Part shown: one piece after another, positions 21,308 to 24,697 of the stretch
Layout: every line of letters begins with the position of its first letter
Numbering within the stretch: the first letter of the stretch is position 1
From: Candidatus Micrarchaeota archaeon
GTDB lineage: Archaea > Micrarchaeota > Micrarchaeia > Norongarragalinales > SBBD01
Reading direction: 5' to 3'
NCBI GenBank assembly: GCA_016212475.1
Contig: JACRGC010000005.1
Span: forward strand, 157-64,156
DNA: 64,000 nt
Program-made: the position numbers and the translations under genes
Notes under the pieces: generated by a model
What the model saw: only the letters and a program-made list of their open reading frames with translations
The model's database searches: none
What the model was told of the DNA's origin: nothing

Positions 21308-24300
21308 TTAACCTTCCGCCTTCATTACGACCTTGATAAGCCCAGTTCCGCAAGGGATTGTCTGCCCGATGATGATGTTTTCGGTAATCCCGCGAAGTTC
21401 GTCCTTTTCGCCTATGATGCAGGCATGGATCAAATGCTTTGCGGTTTCTTCAAATGCGGCCCTTGCAAGCACGGATGCTTTTTCCCCGGCAAGCCCGTGC
21501 CGGCCTATGCTCTTGACAGAGCCCTTGTAGGTCATGGTATCTGCAATGAGCGCAATATGGCGCATATCGACCTTTAGGTCCTGCGCTTCCATGACCTTGT
21601 TGATTTCAGAAACAATTGCATTCCGTCCAGCCTCTATTCCAAGCACGCGGTTGACTTCCATGATATCGTTAGTTGTTGTTCTCGATGCATCAACTTCTGG
21701 TATTTGCATGACCTGCTCAAGGTTGGATCCTTCGGTTGCAATCGAGTGCGTTCCATCCTCGTTTGTTATGATGATTGCCCTATTGACTCCGGTAATCCCC
21801 TTCAGGACGATTTCAGAAAGCTTCGTAGTTGTTTTCCTAATCATCTTAAGCGTATCTTGCTTTGGAATGACCATGATCGTATCTCCGCGCTTTTCATAGT
21901 CGGCAACAGCCTTGATTGCCTTGATCACTTCCTCCTCATCAAGCTTTATTTGCTTCATTTTCTCCTTGTTCATTATGATCTTGATGCGCTTTGCCTCAAA
22001 ATCCTCCCGAATTTCAGCAATTTTTGAAAATTCGACCTGCTCGATGCTGGCTGCAATTGCGGCTACTTTTTTGTAATCTTTTGCAAACTCGGGCTTTAGC
22101 ACGATATCCATGACCGGATTCTTTGGCGATTTGCGGGCGTCCACAAGTTCTACAAGCCTTGTAAATCCAAGCTGCGCAAGCGATGCAACTCCGGCGTAGT
22201 GGAAAGTCCTAAGCGTCATTTGTGTTCCGGGTTCGCCAATTGATTGGGCGGCAACCACTCCAACAGGCTCTCCATATGTGATTTTTGCCCCCATTGAATC
22301 GTATCCATCGCCGTAAAAGAACTGCGCGATGTTGCCCTCGGCATCCCTAACGGAAATGTCCTCGTTTACAATCAGGTCTTGAAGCGCATTGATAAGCCTT
22401 CTTTGCATGTAACCTGTCTTTGCAGGGTTGACTCCCTTATCTACGACGGAATCCCTTCCTCCAGCGGCATGGAAGAAATATTCAATTGGATCCATGCCGA
22501 TCTTGTAATTATTCGAGACAAATCCTTTTGCATACGCTGAAAGATCCCCTTTCCGAAAGTGCGACAAGATGCGATGATTGTATCCGGAGGTCATTCTCTT
22601 TCCACGGATTGCCTGCTGCCCAACTATTGCTGCCATCTGGACTACGTTTAGGAGTTTTCCTTTTGCACCCGCCTTGCTCATCATGATTGCAGGATTTTGA
22701 TGCACTTCGATATCCCCAAAAAGCATTTTTTCCTTGTGGACGTATTTCAGAATGATTTTTCCGCATTTTTCCCTTGTCTCTTCAAGGATGTTCATCATCT
22801 TTTCCTCGAATGTGTCCTTGAGGGTCTTGCCAGGCTGCCTAAGCAGCTTGCCATCCTTTAATTGATGCACAAGGATTTTCTGGTTGTTCCTGCTCTCCTT
22901 TAGAACTTCCTTTATGTCCTTTTTGGCCTCGATTGGAAGATCGTAATCCACCAAGCTTAAGGAAAGCCCGTAATGGCTAAGAATCTGCAGGGCAATTTTT
23001 GTAGATGCGTCAATGAATTTTTGCGCTTCTGTTGACCCGTATTTTTCAAAAATTTCCTTTGTTATTGCATCGGAGGTCTTGCTGTCGACGTGGCCGTTGA
23101 TCAGCTTTGAATTCTTGATTTCAACTTGCTCTTTTACCTTGTTTGTGAATGTGAAATTGAATTTTTCAGGAAGGAGGAGGGAAAATAATTCGCGCCCGGA
23201 AAGATCGCCCTTGACTTCTGATTCAATTCCAGCTGCATTCAAAAGCTCGCATGACTCTCCCTTCGAAAAAGTAACTCCCGGAAGAGAAAGCAAATAAAGC
23301 CCGGAGATTTGATCCAGATCCGGGGCAATGATGGGTTCGCCGTTCCTTGGCGAGAGCACTTGGTCTTGGACTTTCATGAGTATTTCAGCTTCGGCCTGCG
23401 CCTCCTCGTTTTGCGGGACGTGGAGGTTCATTTCATCCCCATCAAAATCCGCATTGTATGGCTTGCAATCCGCAACATTGAACCTGAAGGTTTTGCCCGG
23501 AAGCACCTTTACGGTGTGGGACATCATTGAAATCCTGTGAAGCGAAGGCTGCCTGTTGAAAATTACAGTATCGCCGTTCATGAGCTGCCTTTCGAGGGTG
23601 TAGCCAACGCCTATTTCGCCAAGCACTTCTTCGATATTTGCTTTTGTAACCCTCTTCCTTCTGCCATCGGGCCTAATCACGTAATTGATTTTTTCCGTGT
23701 GATCCTTGATTAAATCCTTGACATAATCCATGTTCCATTCATTTACGGTTAATGGAAGCGTAAGCTCGGCTGCAATGCTTTCCGGAACTCCAAGCTCGTT
23801 GATCCCAAGGGTCGGATCCGGCGAAATTACAGTCCTTGCTGAAAAGTTTACACGCTTTCCCGATAAGTTGTACCTGAACCTGCCTTCCTTTCCTTTTAGC
23901 CTTTGGAAAAGTGTTTTAAGCTGCCTGCCGGACCTGTGCCGAGCCGGTGGAATTCCAGCTGTTTCATTATCATAGTAAGTTACAATGTGGTATTGCAAAA
24001 GTTCCCACAAATCCTCAATGATTAATTGCGGAGCTCCAGCGTCAATATTTTCAGCAAGCCTTTGGTTGATTCTGATAATATCTACAAGCTTGTGGGTCAA
24101 ATCATCTTCCGACCTTTCTCCGGTTTCAAGTGTGATTGAAGGCCTAACAGAAACAGGAGGCACAAGCAAAACAGTTAAAACAATCCACTCCGGCCTAAAT
24201 GATACGCCAAGTGTTTGAAGCACATCATCAGAAACCCTCTCAAGCCTTTCACGGATTTCAGATGGCAAAAGTTTCCTTTCCTCCTCGTAAAATGAGGTTG

Positions 24301-24697
24301 GCCTAACGAATTTGATTTGCTTTTGCTTTTCCTCGCAGTGAGGGCAGGCGGCAACCCTTTTTGCCTTGTCTAGCGAATCAATTTCCAAAAGAAGTTTTCC
24401 GCACCTTGAGCAGGTTGCCTTCAAAAGCTGGTAGACCATTTTTCCAAATCCAACATGGACAACCGGCCGAACAAGTTCGATGTGGCCAAAGTGCCCGCTG
24501 CACGATTTCATCCTTCCTCCGCAGGTTTTGCACTTAAGCCCAGGATCAATTACCCCAAGGTGCTGATCGGCAAGTCCGGCAGCAATTGGATAGCCATCCT
24601 CATCGTATGTGTCCGGGACTGTGATTTTAACCGATGAGAGCTTCCTTACGTTCTCAGGGGAGTAAATCGAAAATTCAATGCTTTCTACTACTTTCAT
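21308..24697 (-). CDS. rpoA: DNA-directed RNA polymerase subunit A. A' and A'' regions appear fused in one 1129-aa reading frame.
   Basis: N-terminal zinc-binding clamp motifs, [15 protein letters not shown], bridge helix [17 protein letters not shown]. The frame continues directly into the A''-type trigger loop [24 protein letters not shown] with no stop. Confidence 0.85.
   Translation of the reverse strand: [1129 protein letters not shown]

Follow-up and report, generated by a model that had tools for sequence, protein, structure and literature searches.

The largest subunit of archaeal RNA polymerase is canonically made as two chains, A' (Rpo1N) and A'' (Rpo1C), from two adjacent genes. 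In a 64,000-nucleotide stretch of contig JACRGC010000005.1 (assembly GCA_016212475.1), referred to here as the window and always meaning the whole stretch analyzed, both parts are encoded by one rpoA gene that runs through the canonical split site without interruption. The initial annotation of this DNA had proposed a true fusion in which the C-terminal tail of A' and the N-terminal head of A'' are absent, and alignment to solved archaeal subunits bears this out. Judged from its sequence, this is a genuine rpoA from a Norongarragalinales-like clade of Micrarchaeota (DPANN), and we infer that it is functional as one chain. The fused state is fixed across an order-level clade and, with a probability that we put at roughly 0.78, it arose there by secondary re-fusion of adjacent rpoA' and rpoA'' genes.

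The phenomenon itself has been published. Unsplit (“A-type”) rpoA is textbook knowledge for Thaumarchaeota (PMC4084955), and Da Cunha et al. (2017, PLoS Genet, PMC5484517) describe it for Thaumarchaeota, Korarchaeota and Bathyarchaeota and also note “a secondary fusion in Pacearchaeota”. The window adds a further fused rpoA in DPANN. Our literature searches found no published report of a rpoA fusion in Micrarchaeota, and rpoA architecture is not discussed in two papers on Micrarchaeota (PMC12892359, PMC8561730) or in a comparative-genomics paper on DPANN (PMC8407392).

The fused gene and its joint

The gene and its parts, all on the minus strand, are as follows.

21308..24697, minus strand: fused rpoA (Rpo1), 1129 amino acids (aa) plus stop, ATG start; from the list of open reading frames (ORFs) and the translation
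22292..24697, minus strand: A' (Rpo1N)-equivalent part, residues 1-802; phmmer matches to 4qiw_A, 8cro_A and 2pmz_A
21308..22291, minus strand: A'' (Rpo1C)-equivalent part, residues 803-1129 plus stop; phmmer matches to 4qiw_C residues 56-383 and 36ro_C residues 58-385
24491..24532, minus strand: clamp Zn motif 1, C56-x2-C59-x6-C66-x2-H69; motif scan
24335..24412, minus strand: clamp Zn motif 2, C96, C99, C118 and C121; motif scan, columns invariant in a 67-sequence alignment
23435..23455, minus strand: catalytic Mg-binding motif NADFDGD, residues 415-421; motif scan
22382..22489, minus strand: bridge helix, residues 737-772; helix assigned by DSSP in the AlphaFold model, and sequence
22274..22309, minus strand: fusion joint, a 12-residue loop, residues 797-808; alignment gaps, junction table, model confidence and DNA read
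22148..22273, minus strand: start of the trigger-loop region, residues 809-850; alignment to A'' from residue 56 onward, and model helices

The single ORF that had been annotated is exact in coordinates and length, and the peptides quoted from it lie in one frame. That frame has no stop through the bridge helix, joint and trigger loop and is continuous at 22230-22360 in both the translation and the DNA, so that the product is one polypeptide of roughly 125 kDa as estimated from its length. Rpb1 domains 1-5 occur in order over residues 110-1075, all above the Pfam gathering scores (PF04997, PF00623, PF04983, PF05000, PF04998). In the 67-sequence alignment C56 of the first Zn motif is invariant and its C59, C66 and H69 are conserved in at least 90%, and the columns N415-N424 around NADFDGD are invariant as well; the motif scan also placed GYMQRRL of the bridge helix at residues 762-768 and the trigger-loop motif at residues 818-833. 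The protein passes the NCBIfam equivalog models for A' (1111.5 against a cut-off of 819, and 1078.4 against 1042.55). The A'' model TIGR02389 is aligned over positions 3-367 of 367 at 387.2 bits, below its cut-off of 420.65, a score that is consistent with the absence of the A'' head. A dedicated search of the 64-kb window found no second copy of rpoA or rpoA''.

Among PDB sequences, the protein is closest to canonical split chains (E = 1e-264 for A', 3e-82 for A''). Window residues up to about 803 match Thermococcus A' (4qiw_A, 906 aa) as far as its residue 881, and residues 804-1126 match Thermococcus A'' (4qiw_C, 391 aa) from residue 56 to 383, with essentially no spacer between the two matches. 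The canonical split site of reference Rpo1N and Rpo1C thereby falls at residue 802/803, about window position 22292, slightly below the 22300-22450 interval that the initial annotation had suggested for inspection. In a 71-sequence alignment a single gap of 78 aa opens at position 802 relative to Thermococcus; the A' tail accounts for 25 aa of it and the A'' head for 53 aa. The A''-equivalent part therefore stands without its archaea-specific N-terminal head, which corresponds to the domain β'-aD3, “an N-terminal addition to Rpo1C” that a domain survey lists as archaea-specific (PMC11515920). Human RPC1 matches the window protein at 808-910 and then at 1023-1367, and because its alignment jumps from 910 to 1023 the region between bridge helix and trigger loop is absent in comparison with eukaryotes too.

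The short product had been put down to the loss of these tails, which is half of the answer: the shortfall against A' plus A'' is real, about 160 aa, but only about half of it (the 78 aa) lies at the joint. Other deletions relative to Thermococcus remove 25 aa at position 103, 9 aa at 141, about 45 aa at 491-543 and 8 aa at the C-terminus. Compared with the canonical split A'/A'' of Thermococcus kodakarensis (4qiw chains A and C) and Sulfolobus (2pmz/2waq), the window gene thus agrees in domains, motifs and operon position and differs in being one gene instead of two, the canonical form having 78 aa more at the joint and further insertions.

An AlphaFold model of the protein has a predicted local distance difference test score (pLDDT) of 80.3 and a predicted template-modelling score (pTM) of 0.73, and superposes on full-length Rpb1 and RPC1 with query-normalized template-modelling scores (TMq) of 0.80-0.85 in Foldseek. 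DSSP assigns helices to residues 737-772, 812-821 and 823-834 of this model, with a low-pLDDT tip at 833-840, and pLDDT stays at 83-87 across residues 791-820, which span the joint. The joint is thus predicted to be a short loop of confident structure.

Conservation of the fused frame

Relatives were collected from a scan of GTDB with one genome per species, which gave 80 loci (named L001 and so on), and from a search of a 5.8-billion-protein set, whose clusters are named P0001 and so on. The nearest loci in the GTDB scan are Ca. Norongarragalinales L001 (84% identity) and three other Micrarchaeota, L002-L004 (61-64%); one of these, LFW-156_1 (L003), is a metagenome-assembled genome (MAG) tentatively assigned to Norongarragalinales (PMC8561730). 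Each of the four has one continuous rpoA ORF, with split rpoB upstream in L001-L003 while L004 ends at the contig edge, and rpoA is fused in all five loci of the window clade. The protein search returned 72 full-length intein-free clusters at 55-85% identity and about 100% coverage (1110-1228 aa), every one of them fused, and 6 further clusters of the clade that carry an intein and are fused as well; all of these derive from assemblies in NCBI, JGI, ENA and Logan. At 55-85% identity this search found no split A' (about 850 aa), so that the orthologues in related genomes, as far as they belong to the window clade, are all fused and none is split. The span from GY..RRL to ..TFH is near-constant at 70-75 aa across the clade clusters, and it is the few residues at the joint itself that vary.

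The initial annotation had allowed for a sequencing or assembly error, a lost stop or start codon or an indel that falsely merges A' and A''. Apart from the fact that MAG-derived sequence can carry indels, nothing was found in favor of it. The same fused frame recurs in 72 + 6 clusters from independent assemblies and different sources with a uniform joint length, as well as in the five GTDB loci, and this excludes an artefact with near certainty; the window also lacks the stop, Shine-Dalgarno (SD) motif and start codon of its split relatives, and the joint is predicted as a confident loop.

In some clade relatives (P0009, P0010, P0034, P0040, P0058, P0067 and P0098, 1608-1679 aa), the fused rpoA is interrupted near the position of window residue 829, within the trigger-loop motif TQMTL/RTFH, by an intein (Pfam PF14528 and PF14890) of about 350-540 aa that the window gene does not have.

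Direction and number of fusions

For every locus we measured in a MAFFT alignment the span between an anchor in the bridge helix and an anchor in the trigger loop.

Canonical (Thermococcus, Methanobacteria, Hadarchaeota, Methanosuratincola and others), split: 136-152 aa or more
Thermoplasmata, split: up to 292 aa
Altiarchaeales, split: 111 aa
Aenigmatarchaeota, split: 114 aa
Other Micrarchaeota, split: 80-105 aa
Window clade, fused: 70-75 aa (window itself 72 aa)
Pacearchaeota, Woesearchaeota and Nanoarchaeota, fused: 77-79 aa
L007, L008 and L049, fused: 84-85 aa
Bathyarchaeota, fused: 150 aa

Split Micrarchaeota already have an A'' head reduced to a minimum: the A'' start codon is 24-30 aa away from the trigger-loop anchor and about 7-13 aa ahead of the GEAVG motif, compared with about 60 aa canonically. 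For this reason the large loss relative to Thermococcus would predate the fusion of the window clade or be independent of it. The nearest split relatives in the RpoA tree are L043 (Micrarchaeia) and L036 (Ca. Burarchaeum), which resemble the window in their reduced A'' head, split rpoB and similar size (832 + 331 aa), and differ in that they keep a stop, a GGTG Shine-Dalgarno motif and an ATG, all of which the window lacks together with about 10 codons. Against L043 the window shows a single gap of 10 aa at the joint (RSKKV/MAKKL), which straddles the gene boundary. The tails that had been called lost are thus indeed absent, but they were mostly gone in split Micrarchaeota, and what the fusion removed is about 10 codons and the boundary cassette.

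This compact cassette is common to split Micrarchaeota and Aenigmatarchaeota and consists of the A' stop, a GGTG SD-like motif, a few bases and ATG, as in GCATAGGTGATGATTATG and AAGGTGTGATTATG; in L043 the GGTG overlaps the A' stop. We observed it at about 8540-8575 of L005, and in L011, L031 and L043. The fusion joint of the window stands where split relatives have the A' C-tail, stop, SD motif, start codon and A'' N-terminal head. We weighed whether M802 of the window protein could be a leftover of the A'' initiator methionine and rejected this, since M802 aligns with a conserved “DPM” of the A' tail in clade relatives (“DPMDRKT” in L002).

How easily the two frames can merge is seen in L005, L011, L031, L037, L051 and L068, where A' and A'' lie in the same frame, parted by one stop and 3-9 nucleotides (273 in L051), so that a single substitution could fuse them where only one stop and a few bases intervene. 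In the Altiarchaeales protein P0105 (1168 aa) the two parts are fused with a 109-aa span retained, and the former A'' N-terminus with its methionine is still legible, “YYAR-MNSEELS...NYEKALVTPGEAVG” against “CYLEIE*/MNLDELPKS...NYKKALVVPGEAVG” in split L063 (8486-8620). To judge from these residues, P0105 offers direct evidence that stop-loss fusion happens in DPANN. It looks like such a fusion caught before shrinkage of the linker.

We infer the direction of the fusion and an order of two steps. First, the helical module at the split site, that is the A' C-tail and the Rpo1C N-terminal domain, would have decayed in still-split Micrarchaeota; then, in the ancestor of the window clade, a small in-frame deletion of about 10 codons with stop, SD motif and start codon would have joined the frames. 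The resulting chain would begin with the clamp and active site, pass the bridge helix and the 12-residue loop and go straight on to the trigger loop, jaw and clamp C-terminus, all in a normal Rpo1 fold. Both halves would be made in an obligatory 1:1 ratio, and since they come as one chain, translational coupling through the SD cassette would be unnecessary. The archaea-specific module of A' tail and A'' head would then appear dispensable in these reduced-genome archaea.

A neighbor-joining (NJ) tree was built from 1057 well-aligned columns with the junction left out and 60 bootstraps. It recovers the window clade (100%) inside Micrarchaeota (98%), and it also recovers the split Micrarchaeota (100%). 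Fused L007 pairs with split L063 within Altiarchaeota (100%), fused L049 falls with split L031 and L037 in Aenigmatarchaeota (100%), and the all-fused clade of Pacearchaeota and Woesearchaeota (100%) is sister to Aenigmatarchaeota (92%). Split-state Altiarchaeota and Aenigmatarchaeota, which flank Micrarchaeota in this tree, have canonical-like A'' heads and a canonical boundary, and because of these heads a split ancestor followed by several later fusions is the simplest reading.

That said, four observations weigh against re-fusion in the window clade. Norongarragalinales has been reported as sister to all other Micrarchaeia (PMC8561730), and because it branches first, polarity within Micrarchaeota rests on outgroups and on homology of the junction. 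The tree is a neighbor-joining tree of fast-evolving DPANN sequences, in which the position of L008 has 63% support. Parsimony over the sampled DPANN clades is near-balanced, with about 5 fusions against about 4 re-splits, and a search of the window joint for a nucleotide relic of the stop/SD/start cassette found nothing convincing.

The early branching of Norongarragalinales would also suit a gene that was never split, retained from an unsplit ancestor as in Thaumarchaeota, Korarchaeota and Bathyarchaeota, with the linker merely deleted. Bathyarchaeota and Asgard-labelled proteins do have unsplit rpoA with a full span of 150-156 aa, and DPANN lie near the archaeal root in some rooting schemes (PMC8407392). 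We nevertheless hold retention to be improbable: in the tree the window protein falls among split Micrarchaeota, Altiarchaeota and Aenigmatarchaeota and not with the sampled Bathyarchaeota or other TACK-type loci, the window rpoB is split at the methanogen-type site, and split DPANN relatives have A'' heads homologous to the canonical form at the same boundary, which under retention would take several re-splits at the exact canonical position. Like the A-type lineages, the window makes its whole largest subunit from one gene; unlike them it has a span of 72 aa, while the Bathyarchaeota L009, L010, L024 and P0110-P0120 keep the full span of about 150 aa, and the sampled Bathyarchaeota proteins are 1264-1284 aa long, stand beside an unsplit rpoB and branch apart from the window.

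Two proteins with Asgard labels, P0099 (Baldrarchaeia, 1291 aa) and P0112 (Helarchaeota, 1293 aa), and one labelled “Micrarchaeota”, P0085 (1238 aa), likewise represent unsplit rpoA and have a full-length linker (143-156 aa). This suggests that the unsplit state is more scattered than the published list of Thaumarchaeota, Korarchaeota and Bathyarchaeota, with binning errors possible where a case depends on its label.

A single older fusion at the base of Micrarchaeota, or of a wider part of DPANN, would make the present split Micrarchaeota secondary re-splits. Micrarchaeota do contain two separate fused groups, the window clade and the type represented by L008, P0106 and P0108; fusion and split counts across DPANN are similar, and the change is mutationally easy both ways, some relatives having both parts in the same frame with one stop and 3-9 nucleotides between. 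Yet the joints of the window clade and L008 are unlike in length (72 and 85 aa) and sequence, the two are grouped in only 3% of bootstraps, and the SD-bearing cassette common to split Micrarchaeota, Aenigmatarchaeota and others would be hard to regain independently, so we give an older fusion little credence and favor re-fusion in the window clade.

The closest published parallel is the Pacearchaeota fusion: there too, a DPANN lineage with a small genome and split relatives has rpoA as one ORF, and the span is likewise short (77-79 aa, window 72 aa) and without the module of A' tail and A'' head. It differs in that Pacearchaeota and Woesearchaeota group with Aenigmatarchaeota (92%) and the window with Micrarchaeota (98%), in unrelated joint sequences, and in rpoB, which is unsplit in most Pacearchaeota and Woesearchaeota loci and split in the window. 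By the neighbor-joining tree, the window fusion would be an event distinct from theirs. In L021, whose fused rpoA is of the Pacearchaeota/Woesearchaeota type, the frame is interrupted at 7441-7443 by a TAA (“NYLLGL*QFSGDY”). This stop, at about residue 480, lies a long way from the canonical split, and an assembly error, a pseudogene or a new split may explain it.

Extended to DPANN as a whole, the argument would have rpoA' and rpoA'' re-fused independently at least 4-5 times, namely in the Norongarragalinales-like clade, the L008-type Micrarchaeota, a subclade of Altiarchaeota, a lineage of Aenigmatarchaeota and the Pacearchaeota/Woesearchaeota, with the flanking module decayed or absent in every sampled case; we consider the odds of this wider claim to be about even. 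If it is true, the split or fused state is homoplastic and unsuited as a “rare genomic change” for rooting, and the module of A' tail and A'' head might be what normally keeps the gene split. Placement of the archaeal root has been argued from the state of rpoA, taken as a character that changes rarely and is almost irreversible. The clade-wide fusion in Micrarchaeota, together with other fused DPANN and Asgard-labelled lineages, indicates that the character flips fairly easily, which weakens that rooting argument, and the 80 loci include every one of the four combinations of split and unsplit states of rpoA and rpoB. The junction, which the initial annotation had expected to be informative on subunit evolution, is so mainly because the character changes repeatedly, while the phenomenon as such is not new. 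On the practical side, proteins of the clade are labelled “subunit A'” in public databases, and marker sets that want separate A' and A'' may misjudge such genomes. For enzymology, the clade offers a natural minimal single-chain Rpo1 without the archaea-specific N-terminal domain of Rpo1C.

Operon context and other features

The fused rpoA is the last of four consecutive minus-strand genes, rpoH, rpoB'', rpoB' and rpoA, and this operon context supports a putative enzymatic role as part of a multisubunit RNA polymerase. The other three genes are listed below.

28183..28413, minus strand: rpoH (Rpo5), 76 aa, first gene of the operon; Pfam RNA_pol_Rpb5_C, E = 1.4e-18
26659..28128, minus strand: rpoB'', N-terminal half of split subunit B, 489 aa; Pfam Rpb2_1,2,3; NF007175 at 628 bits against a cut-off of 355
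24834..26651, minus strand: rpoB', C-terminal half of split subunit B, 605 aa; Pfam Rpb2_4,5,6,7; TIGR03670 positions 1-598 of 599

The split rpoB had been annotated at these same positions, and Pfam and NCBIfam agree with it. The break lies between Rpb2 domains 3 and 4, at about 500-512 of the unsplit B model, the canonical B''/B' site; on the unsplit model PRK08565, B'' spans 14-499 and B' spans 512-1114. The window rpoB is of the split methanogen/halophile type, in two adjacent genes. Among close DPANN relatives the state of rpoB varies, the upstream ORF having 1091 aa (unsplit) in L063 of Altiarchaeales and 623 aa (split B') in L071 of Altiarchaeota, and within Pacearchaeota and Woesearchaeota rpoB is split in L022, L028 and L039 and unsplit in most others.

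In many archaea rpoA'' is followed by rpl30e-nusA-rps12-rps7, and these genes are not found downstream of the window rpoA. Directly downstream lies a lipoprotein-like protein with a partial FGE-sulfatase domain (20046-21107, minus strand), and for the 151-aa ORF at 19556-20011 Pfam gave no match. The region matching A'' is found 2-3 kb downstream of A', within an ORF of 800-1245 aa, in some Thermoplasmata and Methanobacteriota loci (L058 at 5734-9468, L060 and L073), a layout which implies that A'' there carries an intein or a very large insertion.

Elsewhere in the window, Rfam reports a tRNA at 52782-52890 (plus strand, 44.9 bits), which at 109 nucleotides is too long for an intron-less tRNA and is probably an intron-containing archaeal tRNA; ARAGORN in default mode found no tRNA in the window. 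In two giant ORFs on the minus strand, 32054-38035 (1993 aa) and 39014-45325 (2103 aa), the only domains are weak ones close to the N-termini (CarboxypepD_reg, Big_1 and SpaA-type Ig-like), and both ORFs likely encode huge surface proteins. Huge surface proteins of such kind have been described for DPANN archaea. A third large ORF at 59865-63746 (plus strand, 1293 aa) carries fn3 and Pur_ac_phosph_N domains.

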